From the NCBI GenBank assembly GCA_902622845.1, contig CACNRI010000002.1:85035-149034 (forward strand): a stretch of 64,000 bases of DNA, in the 5' to 3' direction. This document shows, one piece after another, positions 57,825 to 64,000 of the stretch. Source of the DNA: an uncultured SAR86 cluster bacterium. GTDB taxonomy: Bacteria > Pseudomonadota > Gammaproteobacteria > Magnimaribacterales > D2472. Made by a program: the position numbers and the translations under genes. Every line of letters begins with the position of its first letter. Within the stretch, counting starts at the first letter, position 1. Under the pieces are notes generated by a model. That model had not been told where the DNA came from, ran no database searches, and saw nothing but the letters and a program-made list of their open reading frames with translations.

Positions 57825-59717
57825 ATGTTAGGTGAAATAAGTCACTTCTTAGCTTTTTCCTCATCAATTGTGTTTTTGGCCTGCTTTGTTCTAGCTTTCT
57901 TGTCCTATTCCTCAAATACTAACAGCATAAGTATTTTTGTTCCCAAGGTTTTTGTATTGGGATCATTAACATTAATTACTTCATTTTTACTATTTGTTTA
58001 TTTAGCAATAATCGATGATTTCTCTATGGCTTACATAGCGAGTCACTCAAACTCAAATCTTCCAACCTTTTATAAAGTTACTTCAATATGGAGCGCACAT
58101 GAAGGTTCACTATTTCTTTGGGTTTTAATAATTTCTTTATGGGGCCTATTTTTCTTAATATTTAGAAATCGTTCAACAACGACTTTTTATCCTCAAACAA
58201 TAGGGATAATTTCATTAGTGGTAGCATGCTTCCTTCTTTTTTTATTATTCATTTCAAGTCCATTTGAAAGAATCTTGCCTTTTGGAGTTCCCGATGGAGC
58301 TGACATTAATCCCATCTTGCAAGATCCAGCTTTAGCAATTCACCCACCAATGCTTTATTTCGGTTACATTGGTTTTGTTATTCCTTTTGCATTTGTTACA
58401 GCTTTTCTAATAAGTGGAAGGTTTGAAAAGTTTCCAATTGCAGAAATTAAGAGTTTTATATTGTCATCTTGGATATTTCTTACAATTGGAATAGCTCTTG
58501 GAAGTTGGTGGGCTTATTACGAACTTGGTTGGGGTGGCTATTGGTTTTGGGATCCAGTGGAAAATGTTGCTCTGATGCCTTGGTTGGCAGGGACAGCGCT
58601 TCTCCATACAGTTTACGTTTCTTCTAGATCAAAGAATCTAATAGCATGGACAATATTTTTATCAATTCTTGCATTTACGCTGAGTTTATTTGGAGCTTTC
58701 ATTGTTAGATCTGGGATAATTGATAGCGTTCACTCATTTGCAAATGACCCAACAAGAGGTTTGTACTTGCTTGGAATGTCTGCATTCTTAATTACTGGCC
58801 CAATTATGCTTTTTGTTAAAAATTTATCAAGAATCTTATCTATTAATAAGGTAAAAGACTTTTCTAAAGAATTTTTTATTGGTGCAAACAATATCTTTTT
58901 CATTACCGCAGTATTTATTATTTTCTTAGGCATATCCTATCCATTAATACTAGAAGCGTTTTCAGATTCTAGAGTTTCAGTAGGAAGTCCTTTCTACAAT
59001 AAAGTATTTGCCCCACTAACCTTTATAACCTCTTTATTCTTGGTTTTTTCAACTTATTCAATATGGTCTCGCGATATACCTATAATGAGAATCATAAAAT
59101 CTTCAACAGTAATCTTTGCTTTAACGATATTGTCTTCCATCGCGATCATATTTTTTCTAGATAGTTTTGAGTGGTGGCTAATAGGAGGTATTTTTTTTGG
59201 TAACTTAATTCTTATAAGATACATATTATTGATTATTGATTCTGTTATTTCTAAAAAATACTTTAATCAAGGGAGTGCAATAGCACATATAGGTTTTGCA
59301 CTATTGATCATCTCTATTTCATTAAATGCTGCTCTCAGCAGTGAAAGAACATTTAGCATGAGTGTCGGAGATGAAGTTAAATTTAATGAGAATACAATTG
59401 AGTTTGATAAGATTTCATTACAAAAAAGTTCTAACTTTGAATCCCTTTCTGCAGACTTTATTTTTTCAAATGGAGATGATACTTTTAAGCTTTATCCAGA
59501 AAAAAGAAAATATTTTGTAAGAGGTGAAATTACAACTGAATCAGATATATCCATAAAGCCTATAAAAGATATATATATAACAATTGGCGAGCAGCAATCC
59601 AGCGGCAAATGGATAGTTAATGTACAAGAAAACTATTTTGTTAGATTGATTTGGATTTCTGCAATAATAATGAGCTTAGGCGCAGTTTTAGTGATCAGAA
59701 GAAAAATTTATGTTTGA
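57825..59717 (+). CDS. ccmF: cytochrome c heme lyase subunit
   Basis: HEGS, HPPMLY, WAYYELGWGGYWFWDPVEN, SVHSF. Confidence 0.96.
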   Translation: MLGEISHFLAFSSSIVFLACFVLAFLSYSSNTNSISIFVPKVFVLGSLTLITSFLLFVYLAIIDDFSMAYIASHSNSNLPTFYKVTSIWSAHEGSLFLWVLIISLWGLFFLIFRNRSTTTFYPQTIGIISLVVACFLLFLLFISSPFERILPFGVPDGADINPILQDPALAIHPPMLYFGYIGFVIPFAFVTAFLISGRFEKFPIAEIKSFILSSWIFLTIGIALGSWWAYYELGWGGYWFWDPVENVALMPWLAGTALLHTVYVSSRSKNLIAWTIFLSILAFTLSLFGAFIVRSGIIDSVHSFANDPTRGLYLLGMSAFLITGPIMLFVKNLSRILSINKVKDFSKEFFIGANNIFFITAVFIIFLGISYPLILEAFSDSRVSVGSPFYNKVFAPLTFITSLFLVFSTYSIWSRDIPIMRIIKSSTVIFALTILSSIAIIFFLDSFEWWLIGGIFFGNLILIRYILLIIDSVISKKYFNQGSAIAHIGFALLIISISLNAALSSERTFSMSVGDEVKFNENTIEFDKISLQKSSNFESLSADFIFSNGDDTFKLYPEKRKYFVRGEITTESDISIKPIKDIYITIGEQQSSGKWIVNVQENYFVRLIWISAIIMSLGAVLVIRRKIYV

Positions 59718-60231
59718 GTCAACTTTGAGAACCTTAATAGTAATTATATTTTTATCAGCTGTTATTCTTTTTACATCTTTAATAAGAAATAATAATAACA
59801 GCCAGTCTCAAGCAGATCTCAATACTCCATTACCTGAATTTACTCTTGGGACTCTTCATTTAGAAAAAAAGATTACAAATGAGGATTTAGAAGATCTTTT
59901 TGTGCTTAATGTTTGGGCAAGTTGGTGCATAACTTGTAGAGTTGAGCATCCATTCTTAGAAGAGATATCAAAAACAATTCCTATCATTGGACTAAATTAT
60001 AAGGATGAAAAGAACAATGCTACTGACTGGTTAAATAAGCTTGGAGATCCATATATTTTTTCTCTATATGATTATTATGGAGAGCTTGCACTTGATTTAG
60101 GCGTAACAGGAGCTCCAGAAACATTTTTAGTTCATAAAGGAAGAATAATTTCACATCATGTCGGCGAAGTAAATCAGAAGGTGTGGAGCTCTAAATTTTT
60201 ATCAAAAATAAATCAAATTAATAATGATTAG
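59710..60231 (+). CDS. ccmG: thiol:disulfide interchange protein DsbE
   Basis: NVWASWCITCRVEHP, GLNYKD, GVTGAPETF. Confidence 0.95.
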   Translation: MFESTLRTLIVIIFLSAVILFTSLIRNNNNSQSQADLNTPLPEFTLGTLHLEKKITNEDLEDLFVLNVWASWCITCRVEHPFLEEISKTIPIIGLNYKDEKNNATDWLNKLGDPYIFSLYDYYGELALDLGVTGAPETFLVHKGRIISHHVGEVNQKVWSSKFLSKINQINND

Positions 60232-60592
60232 GCTCATTACTATCTCCATGATTTTTTCAGTATATACAGCTGCGGAATCTCTTTTCATTTTTAATTCTGA
60301 TGAAGATGAGGCTAGATACTACCAAATTATAAACGAGATTAGATGCCCAAAATGCACTAGTGGCTCATTATCAAGCAGCAATGCACCAATATCTGAAGAC
60401 CTTAAGAGAAAGATTTATGAGCTCATTCAAGAGGGCCGCTCTGATCAAGAAATTAAAGATTATGTTGTTCAACGATATGGAAAAGATTCATTGTATGAGC
60501 CGGACTTCTCAGAGAATTTATTTTTATGGTTAAGTCCCGTTATATTTCTGATCCTAATAGCTGTTAGTGTCCTGCTAATAAGAAGAAGATGA
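60224..60592 (+). CDS. ccmH: cytochrome c biogenesis protein CcmH
   Basis: IRCPKC, SNAPISEDL, RYG...LY.P, C-terminal TM. Confidence 0.93.
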   Translation: MIRLITISMIFSVYTAAESLFIFNSDEDEARYYQIINEIRCPKCTSGSLSSSNAPISEDLKRKIYELIQEGRSDQEIKDYVVQRYGKDSLYEPDFSENLFLWLSPVIFLILIAVSVLLIRRR

Positions 60593-61371
60593 TGATATTG
60601 AGTTTAATAATTTCTTTTTTAATTGCTGCGCCATTCTTTTTATATATTTTTAATATTGGAAATAGGGCGAGATCGCTTGCCCTTTTCTTTGGCTTATTAA
60701 TTATTTTCATTCCCTCTTTCCTTTTTTTGAGTAAATACTCTGTAATTGGCTCATCAAAGGAGATAATTCTTGTTAGCGAAGTGAATTCTAAGATAATTTC
60801 GGGCGAGGCTTTAAAAACATCAGATTTAAAAAAAATAAGAAACTTTGCTCCTGAGGATGAGCTAGTTTTATGGTTTGAAGAGATTATAAGAAAGTCCATT
60901 CAAGAAAATAATTTAGATACTGCAGAACTCACTCTTAGATATGCTGAAGAAGATTTTATGCAATCTGGTAATGAGACCTCCTATTATTTTCTTTTTTCAC
61001 TTTTAAGAGATAAAAAATTTCCTCAATTTGCTTCTGCGTCAATCACATTAGATATCTCTGATCTACCCAAATGCGCCATTGAAAACTCTGTCTTTAAGAT
61101 TTTTATCAATGATGGACCTCTTATTCCTTTAGCAATCTCACAAAATAACTCCAGTGAGGTTGCTCACAAGATTACAAATGCTAATTCTCCAATTCCTGGA
61201 TTTGATATATCTTCTGCATTTATGAATGAATCTACTCTTCGAATTATCTCCAAAGTAATTTGTAAGAATGATGATATTTTTGAGGCAAAAAGACTGTTTA
61301 AATTGTCCAAAAATGATGTGAATGTGACCTATAAAATCCCTTCAAATCAATGGTTAATAGCCCTTAAATAA
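60589..61371 (+). CDS. CcmI/CycH-like protein (divergent, shortened)
   Basis: Two N-terminal TMs; last gene of the ccm operon; C-terminal beta-rich region (PLIPLA...SPIPGFDISSA...LRIISKV) resembles the CycH C-domain. Confidence 0.5.
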   Translation: MMILSLIISFLIAAPFFLYIFNIGNRARSLALFFGLLIIFIPSFLFLSKYSVIGSSKEIILVSEVNSKIISGEALKTSDLKKIRNFAPEDELVLWFEEIIRKSIQENNLDTAELTLRYAEEDFMQSGNETSYYFLFSLLRDKKFPQFASASITLDISDLPKCAIENSVFKIFINDGPLIPLAISQNNSSEVAHKITNANSPIPGFDISSAFMNESTLRIISKVICKNDDIFEAKRLFKLSKNDVNVTYKIPSNQWLIALK

Positions 61372-61406
61372 GGTAAAATAAGCATTTAATTTATTGATAT
61401 TTTTTG

Positions 61407-63590
61407 ATGCAGCTTAAGCACATTAAATTGGCTGGTTTCAAAAGTTTCGTGGATCCCACGAGGATATCTTTCCCAACAAATATGGTAGCCGTTGTAGGTC
61501 CAAATGGATGTGGAAAATCTAATATTATCGATGCTGTCAGATGGGTGCTTGGTGAACTCTCAGCAAAAAATCTCAGAGGCGATTCAATGTCAGATGTTAT
61601 TTTTAATGGATCTGAGCAAAGAAAGCCATCTGGGCAGTGTAGTATTGAACTTTTATTTGATAACTCAAGTGGAAAAGTTGGAGGCGAGTATGCAGCTTTC
61701 AATGAGATATCCGTAAAAAGAGTTATGACTAGAGATAGTCAATCAAGTTATTACATCAATAACACTAAGTGCAGAAGGAAAGATGTTCAGGATATTTTTC
61801 TTGGAACAGGGCTTGGCCCAAGCAGTTATGCAATTATCGAGCAAGGAATGGTTTCCTCTTTGGTAAGTGCAAAGCCTGAGGAGTTAAGAACACACATCGA
61901 AGAGGCTGCAGGGGTTTCAAAATATAGAGAAAGAAGAAAGGAAACAGAAAGCAGAATAAAAAAGACAAAGGAAAACTTATCTAGAGTCAATGACATCAGA
62001 GATGAAATTGGAAGATTGATAAGAAGATTAGAAAGCCAGGCTAAAGCTGCTGATAGATACAAAGATTATAAAAATCAAGAAAAAGAAAAAGAGTTGAATG
62101 TTGCTATCCTGTTTTCTCTTGATGCCAGAGACAAAAGAGATCTTTTGAATAATAATCTCGCAGCGCTTCAAAAGGATGAGTCTATAAAAGAATCAGAAGT
62201 TTCAGTAAAGCAAGCTAAGCTTGATCAATACAAAACAGAGCATGAATCAGTTCTTTCTAAATATGAAGATGCACAGAAAAAGTTTTATGAGGTTGGGTCA
62301 GAAATAGCGAGGTTTGAACAGAATCTTCAAAATATTAGAACAACTAAAGATAATACGACGAGAGAACTTGAGAGAGTAAAAGCGGCTTATGAAGATGCTC
62401 TTGAAAAAGCTTCAGATTTTGAAAACTTGTCTCCCAAAGAGAAGGCTATTCACTTAATAGATGAAATTATTTCTAAAATCTCTATTCCTGAAATCAAAAG
62501 CAAAGCAGAACAACTTAAAGATATATTGCTCAGCATATTCAATATTGTTCTTAAACAGTCTAAAGAAATTAGCGATGAATATCTAAACCAGCAAGAAAAC
62601 CTAGAGACAGAACTTAAGAAAACAACGCAAAGCTCAAAAGAAATTTCTACAAAACTTCAAGAGCTTATAGAGACAAGTGCCTCTGCAGAAGCTGAGTTAA
62701 ACTCTATTAGAAAAGACCAACAAGAAGTAGATAGAGAAATAAGAAGATTGGAAAATGAAAAAAGTGTTTCCCTATTGGATCTTAAAGCAATTCAGGAAAA
62801 AATAACCAATACAAAAATTGAAATAAGTTCTCATAGTGTTCATCTTGAAAATTCATCAAAAAGAATATCTGAATCGGGAATTGATATTAATGATATTGAC
62901 AGAGCCAACTATCAAGATTTATCAATAGAAGAACTTCAATCGGAACTTGAGACCATTAGATCTAAAATTATCAGATTGGGTGCCATCAATTTAGCAGCTC
63001 CAGATGAAATTGCTGAGGAGAGAAAAAGAAAAGATGAGTTGGATAAGCAAAATGAAGACTTAGAAGAAGCACTTGAGAAGTTAAACAAGGCCATTTCACA
63101 AATCGATAAAGAGACTAAAGAAAAATTTATTGAGAGTTTTGATGCAGTAAATAAAAGATTGAAATCTATCTTCCCAATAATGTTTGGAGGAGGTAATGCA
63201 GAGTTATCTCTTACTGATAATAGCTACCTAAATGCTGGTGTTAAGCTTATGGCTCGCCCACCAGGTAAAAAGAATTCGACTCTTTCGCAGTTATCAGGTG
63301 GAGAAAAGGCTATGACCGCTTTAGCTTTAGTCTTTGCTTTGTTTGAATTAAATCCTGCACCTTTTTGCCTACTCGATGAAGTTGATGCGCCGCTTGATGA
63401 TCTAAATACTTCAAGATTTATCAATATGGTTGAAGAAATGTCAAAGAAAATTCAGTTTATCTTTATAACCCATAACAAGGTATCAATGGAAAAAAGTGAC
63501 CACCTAATGGGAGTTACAATGCAAGAAGCTGGTGTTTCCAGAGTCGTGTCTGTTGATGTTAATCAAGCAGTAGAGTTCGCAGCCCAATAA
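61407..63590 (+). CDS. smc: SMC-family ATPase, unusually short, no recognisable hinge
   Basis: GFKSF, GPNGCGKSN Walker A, IEQG Q-loop, EEAAG, LGAINLAA, LSGGEK signature, LDEVDAPLD, ITH; smc-zipA synteny. Confidence 0.93.
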   Translation: MQLKHIKLAGFKSFVDPTRISFPTNMVAVVGPNGCGKSNIIDAVRWVLGELSAKNLRGDSMSDVIFNGSEQRKPSGQCSIELLFDNSSGKVGGEYAAFNEISVKRVMTRDSQSSYYINNTKCRRKDVQDIFLGTGLGPSSYAIIEQGMVSSLVSAKPEELRTHIEEAAGVSKYRERRKETESRIKKTKENLSRVNDIRDEIGRLIRRLESQAKAADRYKDYKNQEKEKELNVAILFSLDARDKRDLLNNNLAALQKDESIKESEVSVKQAKLDQYKTEHESVLSKYEDAQKKFYEVGSEIARFEQNLQNIRTTKDNTTRELERVKAAYEDALEKASDFENLSPKEKAIHLIDEIISKISIPEIKSKAEQLKDILLSIFNIVLKQSKEISDEYLNQQENLETELKKTTQSSKEISTKLQELIETSASAEAELNSIRKDQQEVDREIRRLENEKSVSLLDLKAIQEKITNTKIEISSHSVHLENSSKRISESGIDINDIDRANYQDLSIEELQSELETIRSKIIRLGAINLAAPDEIAEERKRKDELDKQNEDLEEALEKLNKAISQIDKETKEKFIESFDAVNKRLKSIFPIMFGGGNAELSLTDNSYLNAGVKLMARPPGKKNSTLSQLSGGEKAMTALALVFALFELNPAPFCLLDEVDAPLDDLNTSRFINMVEEMSKKIQFIFITHNKVSMEKSDHLMGVTMQEAGVSRVVSVDVNQAVEFAAQ

Positions 63591-64000
63591 ATGCTTTCAA
63601 ATACTGAGATTTACTTAATAGGTTTAGGTTTTTTCTTAGCCATACTTGGGGCATTTCTTTATTTTAGAAAAGTATCTAATTCGAACAAAATGCTTTTGAA
63701 AGCAAAGCAGGCAAATTTAAAGGACTTTAGCTATAAAAGTGAAGCTTTCGCAAAGCAAGATTTAGTGATTCTATATTTATTTAGTATTGATGATAACTTC
63801 TTTGATATGAGTCAATTAAATGATTTTTTAATTAATTATGGATTACAAAAGAATGATGACTTCTTTTCTATTTATGACAATGATATTGAGAAATTTAGAG
63901 TGGCAAATGCCATAAAACCAGGCACTCTTAATGAAGATACTCAAACTCAAGCATTACTTTTAGCGACTGATCTGGCTGCACAGGAAAACGCAACTGACAG
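63591..64000 (+). CDS. zipA: ZipA-like cell division protein (partial, runs off the window end)
   Basis: ATG 63591; N-terminal TM (IYLIGLGFFLAILGAFLYFRK); FRVANAIKPGTL resembles the ZipA FtsZ-binding-domain FSxANxxKPGTF; directly after smc. Confidence 0.75.
   Translation, partial: MLSNTEIYLIGLGFFLAILGAFLYFRKVSNSNKMLLKAKQANLKDFSYKSEAFAKQDLVILYLFSIDDNFFDMSQLNDFLINYGLQKNDDFFSIYDNDIEKFRVANAIKPGTLNEDTQTQALLLATDLAAQENATD

Follow-up and report, generated by a model that had tools for sequence, protein, structure and literature searches.

An SMC (structural maintenance of chromosomes) protein without a hinge domain, each of whose arms is missing its distal half, was found in a 64,000-nt stretch of DNA (hereafter, the window) from an uncultured SAR86 cluster bacterium (GenBank assembly GCA_902622845.1, contig CACNRI010000002.1, positions 85,035 to 149,034). 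Its gene, smc, lies at 61407..63590 on the forward strand of the window and forms an intact single frame of 727 aa followed by a stop codon. On balance, we think it rather probable that this protein is the cell's only SMC and serves as the ATPase of an Smc–ScpAB condensin, in which a helical apex closes the far end in place of the hinge. A wider proposal, which we hold tentatively, is that the apex is a new kind of closure element carried in two arm-length versions (727–733 and 995–996 aa), that these versions go back to one ancient duplication and have been switched repeatedly or kept in a long-lived two-allele state, and that hinge loss is perhaps convergent in streamlined lineages.

An SMC protein without a hinge

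An in-frame TTG at 61404 would extend the open reading frame (ORF) to 61404..63590 (+), 728 aa. The start at 61407 was preferred because orthologues begin at the following ATG (MQLKH...) and the database copies are 727 aa long. The initial annotation, made from the sequence alone, had described one intact frame of about 727 aa encoding a complete SMC head with EEAAG and LGAINLAA segments, and both descriptions held. All ATPase motifs, including the catalytic Glu of Walker B, are present and invariant across 14 orthologues (alignment A1): Walker A GPNGCGKS at residues 31–38, the Q-loop at Q146, EEAAG at 165–169, LGAINLAAP at 524–532, the signature LSGGEK at 629–634, Walker B LLDEVD at 655–660, and H689. 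The mean pairwise identity of the first half of the head (residues 1–170) was 0.84 within the family, and head identity across genera was 0.76–0.84, values that point to functional constraint.

Judged from profile scores, the 727-aa protein is a true member of the SMC family, distinct from RecN, SbcC and MukB. It scored 834.5 bits against TIGR02168 (SMC_prok_B, NCBIfam; curated cut-off 567.35) in two stretches, the first of which pairs residues 3–350 with positions 1–347 of the 1181-position profile, and it matched Pfam SMC_N with an E-value of 1.9e-63. All 45 matches at E ≤ 1e-10 in a search of PDB sequences were SMC proteins, bacterial Smc heads (Bs/Gs) coming first. The score against the RecN profile TIGR00634 was 50.4 bits (cut-off 407.85), and the Rad50 models gave at most 55 bits (cut-offs 700–1087). 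By these scores the head is that of an SMC, and the "RecN-like" apex suggested initially is an analogy only, as neither the profile score nor a PDB search with the apex profile linked the protein to RecN. Cysteines occur only at positions 35, 78, 122 and 654; with none in the arms (residues 123–653), there is no CxxC zinc hook, as had been noted.

No match to SMC_hinge (PF06470) was obtained for the window protein even at E ≤ 10, nor for any of six representatives of the order, while both full-length gammaproteobacterial SMCs used as positive controls matched (7e-12 and 6.4e-14). The span from EEAAG to LGxxN is 359 aa, compared to 783–803 aa in three full-length relatives, in line with the roughly half-length arms proposed at the outset. 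When the protein was aligned to a full-length SMC by BLAST, residues 1–387 and 399–726 paired with reference residues 1–383 and 843–1170, and the alignment passed over reference residues 384–842, some 460 in number. The glycine-free stretch reported between positions ~62295 and ~62877 is exactly as described: Gly297 and Gly491 (nt 62295 and 62877) enclose residues 298–490, which contain none. Prolines lie at positions 343 and 361.

AlphaFold2, run on a 14-row alignment, returned a model with a mean predicted local distance difference test score (pLDDT) of 70.5 and a predicted template modelling score of 0.35; the arms reached 80–90 and the heads were poor, with pLDDT below 50 for the head parts of this model and that of the long form described below. 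Helices were predicted at residues 171–334, 343–357, 361–489 and 531–593, with a low-confidence linker at 335–342, a turn at 358–360, and a joint-like break at 490–530. In secondary structure and pLDDT, the model shows two long helices (171–334 and 361–489) with one turn at 358–360, on which the arms may fold back. Because no strand was predicted between residues 123 and 596, the centre is, as modelled, helical and without room for a hinge fold.

The centre yielded neither a hinge match nor a predicted hinge fold, and the protein lacks both the hinge domain and the distal half of each arm. The remaining arm measures ~164–187 aa. By our own arithmetic, scaled from the arm of Bacillus subtilis (Bs) Smc (344 aa, ~47 nm; PMC5344682), it would be ~22–26 nm long.

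The frame recurs in independent data. It is shared at 730 aa by nine of the ten genomes of the genus with a match (the window's own included), the tenth being cut at a contig end, and metagenomes yielded 18 near-identical protein clusters. Most of the smc gene was recovered in 20 sequencing runs from 11 studies, six of the runs being metatranscriptome libraries. Contigs from four runs of four studies covered all 30 bins of the gene with no indel and no joint, which speaks against a collapsed assembly across the centre. Single contigs spanned the centre in DNA (61995–62986 and 61957–62776) and in an RNA library (62208–63085); the RNA-library contigs suggest that smc is transcribed.

Hinge loss and arm-length classes in the SAR86 order

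PF06470 matched in none of 61 relatives and in none of 266 genomes of the order (four families, 22 genera; 57 genomes at least 90% complete). These 266 genomes are kin, and they probably represent one loss rather than 266. All SMC frames of the order that could be viewed in full shared this architecture. The short, hinge-less form proposed in the initial annotation thus stands, although not as the oddity of one genome: it is order-wide, comes in several arm-length classes, and is shared by the close relatives. The genome of the window belongs to the same family as AAA076-P13, which PMC9771814 describes as a genus within the SAR86 cluster of Gammaproteobacteria whose cells measure ~0.3 μm across.

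In a sample of the class, PF06470 matched in 250 of 300 genomes (246 of 296 without the unpublished G302, G379, G523 and G533). Ten class genomes without a hinge match were checked: six had no SMC match, three had a full-length SMC, and one had a fragment at a contig end; no short hinge-less SMC was among them. The three full-length SMCs (G293, G345 and G326) have frames of 1157–1192 aa that cover the whole TIGR02168 profile, which shows that the Pfam hinge model misses some divergent hinges. With three of ten such genomes carrying full-length SMCs, we did not accept a missing PF06470 match by itself as showing that genomes beyond the order have lost the hinge. Within the SAR86 order, hinge loss is proven because the evidence of length and alignment adds to the missing Pfam match.

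Short SMCs were also seen elsewhere. Among the best 150 of the representatives at 50% identity, 139 were 1139–1220 aa long and 11 were shorter, including five otherwise unclassified ones (990, 1003, 1071, 1110 and 906 aa). P0200 (990 aa) and P0227 (1003 aa) are short-armed with the hinge kept (PF06470 at 1.1e-5 and 4.7e-12); they approach the hinge-less 995-aa form in total length and differ from it in architecture. The 1071-aa representative had a sub-threshold hinge match. P0253 (1110 aa) had no Pfam hinge match and a Gly-rich centre collinear with full-length SMC. P0266 (906 aa) constitutes a further hinge-less length class, collinear with the 827-aa family described below (41% identity); its centre looks all coiled-coil, and the ESM Atlas holds a 905-aa Pseudomonadota cluster of 243 members. 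Other look-alike clusters in the ESM Atlas, which we regard as leads, comprise short SMC_N proteins of Actinomycetota (736 aa), Candidatus Parcubacteria (752 aa) and Spirochaetota (919 aa). Each may reflect a separate loss of the hinge, and the Actinomycetota cluster may be the published hinge-less one discussed below.

Five length classes were distinguished in the order. The window's family has a short form (727–733 aa) and a long form (995–996 aa); the second, third and fourth families have forms of 733–736, 810 and 822–827 aa, respectively. The 118 matches in the window's family consisted of 74 short frames (729–749 aa), 38 long frames (996–1010 aa) and six partial frames (152–666 aa), at least two of which abut a contig end; no intermediate between the short and long lengths occurred among the 118. 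Six genera had short forms only (g1, 9; g2, 1; g3, 1; g5, 33; g8, 9; g10, 3) and two had long forms only (g4, 6; g6, 24). At least two genera, g7 (two short, three long) and g9 (16 short, five long), contain close relatives with either version.

Alignments indicate that the 995-aa form is the short form with a nested duplication of the distal N-terminal and C-terminal arm and the same apex on top (loci in relatives: L054:3001-5985, L125:708-3695, L135-L139). The duplicated part corresponds to short-form residues 226–537. Long-form residues 1–350 and 658–993 match short-form residues 1–350 (72–74% identity) and 390–725 (62%), and the central 312 aa are collinear by BLAST, through the apex, with short-form residues 226–537. 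This centre matched the window protein at E 8e-39 and the short form of the same genus at E 4e-72 (41% identity); against full-length outgroup SMCs it gave nothing, or E 2e-5. Self-BLAST of whole proteins produced no off-diagonal rows for any protein, and the repeat was seen by BLAST with the excised centre instead. Relics remain in the long form as DLSPK at ~340 and LGSINLASPDEY at ~649–660, with a full apex module at ~458–512. In the AlphaFold2 model of the long form (28 rows), the helices are broken exactly at the relic and apex points, with a turn at 480–482.

The history of the duplication was approached through trees of the repeat units, in which all inner copies formed one clade (99 in the Shimodaira–Hasegawa-like approximate likelihood-ratio test, SH-aLRT). 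The inner copies branch as (g9, (g7, (g4/g6))), in the same pattern as the outer copies and the hosts. A quick tree built from the head part placed the g7 long form as sister to a g7 short form (support 100). An independent duplication in g7 was rejected by the approximately unbiased test (delta lnL 88, p 5.9e-45), for a group that was named after the tree had been seen and that has long branches. The g9 long forms are exactly 995 aa long, align without gaps to the others, and are 80–82% identical in their outer parts to the g9 short form. Divergence of the inner arm copies is roughly twice as rapid as that of the outer ones; the apex module is kept nonetheless. The ratio of inner to outer distances falls from ~2 for close pairs to 1.1–1.3 for deep pairs, which could be due to transfer of the long allele between genera or to saturation. 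All this is most simply explained by a single old duplication close to the base of the family, followed by repeated loss of the inner copy or by long persistence of both alleles.

The landmark span of the long form is 627 aa, or ~313 per arm. For full-length relatives, the corresponding value is ~300–310 per arm, calculated as (783 to 803 minus ~180)/2 with an assumed hinge size of ~180; on these figures, the duplication restores about the canonical arm length. The long and short forms differ by ~134 aa per arm (120–124 on the N-terminal side, 146–147 on the C-terminal side). A fit to the arm periodicity of ~91–99 aa (PMC5344682) was dropped, ~134 aa not being a whole number of periods.

The apex module and the far end of the complex

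The apex consists of a linker (residues 335–342), a helix (343–357, SPKEKAIHLIDEIIS), a turn (358–360) and the start of the C-terminal arm helix, which opens with the hydrophobic stretch LKDILLSIFNIVL. The short and long forms of the window's family share an apex of the pattern LSPKEKA...ELKxLLxxILNIA. The apex core (340–386) has a mean pairwise identity of 0.50 within the family, compared to 0.21–0.34 for the flanking 21-aa windows. Hydrophobicity in the arms also peaks there (0.42, around residue 371). All seven invariant columns of alignment A2 (22 sequences from both length classes) lie inside the apex (L341, P343, E345, K346, L370, L374 and Q384; residues 341–384), as do four of the eight nearly invariant ones. 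From this we infer a functional role for the apex, as a closure element that replaces the hinge at the distal end.

The partners of a canonical condensin are present in the genome (1.19 Mb, nine contigs, 91% complete). ScpA (99.8 bits) and ScpB (166.7 bits), for which a genome check had been suggested, are encoded by adjacent genes in an scpA-scpB-rluB operon (rluB being a pseudouridine synthase gene), and ParB was found at 113.8 bits. The smc of the window was the only SMC-type frame among the SMC_N matches of the genome. A PF06470 match was found nowhere in the genome, the N-terminal domain of MukB (PF04310) had no match at E ≤ 1, and TIGR00634 yielded only weak matches, to the SMC itself and to RecF. 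Thus, neither a second full-length smc nor a mukB was found in this 91% complete genome.

In the mechanism that we favour, two SMC chains would form a closed complex, with the heads bridged by ScpA/ScpB as in canonical Smc and the far ends joined by the helical apex (helix 343–357, the turn and the hydrophobic start of the return helix). The simplest closure would be two hairpins packed as a four-helix bundle. The lumen would be that of ~22–26 nm arms, loading would take place at ParB/parS, and DNA would be extruded or held as by ordinary Smc. Such a complex would have no hinge channel, the proposed gate for the bypass of large obstacles.

Several observations weigh against closure by the apex. 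Its conservation is moderate: its window ranks 36 of 313, the higher non-overlapping windows among the first 20 listed are all head-proximal, and the neck is more conserved. The confidence of AlphaFold2 was lower at the apex (block means 55–75) than in the arms. The apex sequence varies across the order, as the 733–736-aa family has a tip rich in Gly and aromatic residues and the 810–827-aa families carry other tips, so that there is no single order-wide closure motif. Searching PDB sequences with the apex profile from A2 identified no solved dimerisation domain; each of the seven weak matches (best E 3.8e-4) was to a helical or coiled-coil protein of a generic kind (an adhesin fragment, EsxA, designed bundles, prefoldin and flagellin), with no hinge, MukB hinge, RecN or hook among them. 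The 727-aa form also runs counter to the reported trend for channel-less hinges to go with longer arms (PMC12647877). At 91% completeness, the genome does not prove that a second condensin or RecN is absent. Apex dimerisation is itself putative. A homodimer prediction for the apex (two copies of residues 291–430, A2) gave a median score of 0.21 against a mark of 0.42, run without controls, and speaks neither for nor against binding.

The strongest competitor, which we nevertheless consider unlikely, is an open-ended SMC, in which the apex would be a hairpin cap and the chains would be held at the heads, perhaps with side-by-side arms, to give a clamp or tweezer without a closed ring. The kept kleisin and ScpB could dimerise the head end, and the differences in the apex between families of the order are what a non-specific interface would lead one to expect; the modest AlphaFold2 confidence at the apex agrees with such a complex as well, and no sign of dimerisation came out of the analysis. 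It accounts less readily for an apex that exceeds the coiled coil on either side in conservation and hydrophobicity and is kept in kind on short and long arms alike. In addition, LKDILLSIFNIVL appears more hydrophobic than a two-helix hairpin would need, and every functional B. subtilis construct reported in PMC5344682 kept some distal dimerisation domain.

That the protein has been repurposed for RecN-like tethering of DNA ends in repair, in place of the condensin role, is improbable. RecN combines a head of the SMC superfamily with a short hinge-less coiled coil, a shape that the window protein resembles, and no RecN was found in the genome beyond the weak TIGR00634 matches; yet in a 91% complete genome recN may be merely unassembled. 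The head lies far above the SMC equivalog cut-off and reaches only 50 of the 408 bits set for RecN. Moreover, scpA/scpB and parB have been retained in a genome of 1.19 Mb, as has the smc-zipA-ligA position, so that partners and locus both set the protein apart from RecN. Rad50/SbcC likewise resemble it in their SMC-like head and hinge-free coiled coil; unlike them, the window protein has no CxxC hook, and its Rad50 profile scores do not exceed 55 bits.

We give still less credit to a cryptic, extremely reduced hinge, whereby the 50-aa apex would be a remnant missed by profiles. PF06470 can indeed miss real hinges, as in three of the ten class genomes checked and in P0253. However, a span of 359 rather than 783–803 aa leaves no room for one, residues 298–490 contain no Gly and the centre no predicted strand, and the full-length alignment passes over ~460 reference residues. 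Finally, the chance of an assembly artefact or a decaying gene is negligible, being effectively refuted by the recurrence of the frame in the genomes of the genus and in 18 metagenomic clusters, by the contigs without indel or joint, and by the invariant catalytic motifs.

Locus, known systems and implications

The genes of the locus are arranged in the order ccmF, redoxin (ccmG-like), ccmH, a 260-aa ORF, smc, zipA and ligA (Table 1), and the description of this region as a normal smc-zipA locus is borne out by the ZipA_C and DNA_ligase_aden neighbours. The ZipA is only 187 aa long and consists of an N-terminal hydrophobic stretch and ZipA_C (2.2e-11), the long linker region seemingly missing. 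The ZipA of Escherichia coli is much longer, and this short ZipA would be another miniaturised cell-cycle protein beside the miniature SMC. The 260-aa ORF (60589–61371, +) between ccmH and smc had no Pfam match at E ≤ 0.001, and its N-terminus appears to span the membrane; its position would suit a divergent protein of the CcmI type.

Table 1. Coordinates of the smc gene, its parts and its neighbours in the window, with the basis of each assignment.
Feature	Coordinates	Strand	Basis
smc gene	61407..63590	+	ORF; TIGR02168 834.5 bits vs cut-off 567; start from orthologues
N-terminal half of ATPase head, residues 1–170	61407..61916	+	SMC_N match 4–140; A1
N-terminal arm helix, residues 171–334	61917..62408	+	AlphaFold2 helix, pLDDT ~80–88
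Apex module at the place of the hinge, residues 335–390	62409..62576	+	AlphaFold2 elements; conservation peak; A2
C-terminal arm helix, residues 391–489	62577..62873	+	AlphaFold2 helix 361–489
Joint-like break in C-terminal arm, residues 490–530, ending in LGAINLAAP	62874..62996	+	AlphaFold2 breaks 490–506 and 524–530; A1
Head-proximal C-terminal arm and C-terminal half of ATPase head	62997..63587	+	second SMC_N stretch; A1; PDB Smc head matches
ccmF, redoxin (ccmG-like), ccmH (context only, outside the system)	57825..60592	+	Pfam CcmF_C 4.5e-59, Redoxin 1.2e-12, CcmH 5.1e-32
Start of zipA (187-aa ORF running past the window end), then ligA	63591..64000	+	ZipA_C 2.2e-11; DNA_ligase_aden 3.7e-91

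The SAR86 protein shares with the canonical Smc–ScpAB system (B. subtilis Smc, 1186 aa) the head family, the presence of ScpA, ScpB and ParB, and coiled-coil arms with a joint-like break ending in LGxxN. Unlike the canonical protein, it has no hinge, an arm of ~164–187 instead of 344 aa, and a helical apex. Engineered forms of B. subtilis Smc come closer. As reported by Burmann et al. (2017; PMC5344682), cells in which a Rad50 zinc hook stands in for the hinge grow normally, and shortened arms work in certain length ranges (253–267 or at least 321 aa). A foreign dimeriser and short arms are thus tolerated in Smc(Zh) and Mini-Smc, to which the SAR86 SMC looks like a natural counterpart; the engineered proteins differ in having a proven dimeriser (hinge or zinc hook), where that of SAR86 is putative. 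The arm of the 727-aa form is shorter than any functional engineered arm reported there and falls between the natural arm-length modes of 163 and 238 aa (the other modes being 341, 423 and 515 aa).

The hinge has been proposed to act as a bypass gate, and arms of 511–512 aa were given for Acetobacter Smc, compared to 330 in Bs Smc (PMC12647877). The channel-less SMCs covered by that source (Wadjet-II/III JetC, MukB and Acetobacter Smc) are loop extruders without a hinge channel and are predicted to be without hinge-gated bypass, as the SAR86 form would be. Their tips retain a globular, hinge-like dimeriser and their arms are mostly longer, whereas the window protein has a non-globular tip and shorter arms.

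Hinge-less SMCs from the ocean have been reported before. An abundant "hinge-less" cluster in OM-RGC (cluster 9; PMC12153180, Environ Microbiome 2025) carries an Actinomycetes annotation and lies close to actinobacterial SMCs, although its authors did not settle on a host lineage; it has no CxxC, and no regular SMC was found alongside it in single-cell genomes. It resembles the SAR86 protein in its SMC head, its lack of a hinge and of CxxC, and its abundance in ocean data. Given the 736-aa Actinomycetota look-alike in the ESM Atlas, a lead, it may be a parallel case to SAR86. It differs by its actinobacterial label, and the available text of PMC12153180, through whose description the two were compared, does not mention SAR86 or Gammaproteobacteria and gives no analysis of apex, arm length, locus or partners. 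The suggestion of an undescribed system, made in the initial annotation, therefore fails for hinge-less ocean SMCs as such and stands for the assignment to SAR86, the apex, the locus and the arm length, which that text does not contain. The literature searches made turned up no account of SAR86 having a hinge-less SMC, nor of the apex of that protein or the duplication that relates its long and short forms.

Every textbook SMC is defined by three parts, among them the hinge, which is credited with dimerisation, DNA binding, loading and, of late, the gated bypass of large obstacles (PMC12647877). Engineering in B. subtilis indicated that the hinge fold is dispensable if something closes the far end (PMC5344682), and SAR86, an abundant group of the surface ocean, looks like a natural version of that experiment, with arms about halved in many lineages and re-lengthened by duplication to about the canonical length in others. 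For the hinge-less SMCs reported in 2025, SAR86 supplies a defined genomic setting, or else an additional and independent one, in which partners and locus are known. Should the apex close the ring, SAR86 would define a new dimeriser along with a minimal architecture for SMCs; should it stay open, SAR86 would have to be reconciled with any model that requires the SMC lumen to be topologically closed. The hinge-less forms and their arm-length series would, if true, constitute a natural experiment on the role of SMC hinges and arm lengths.

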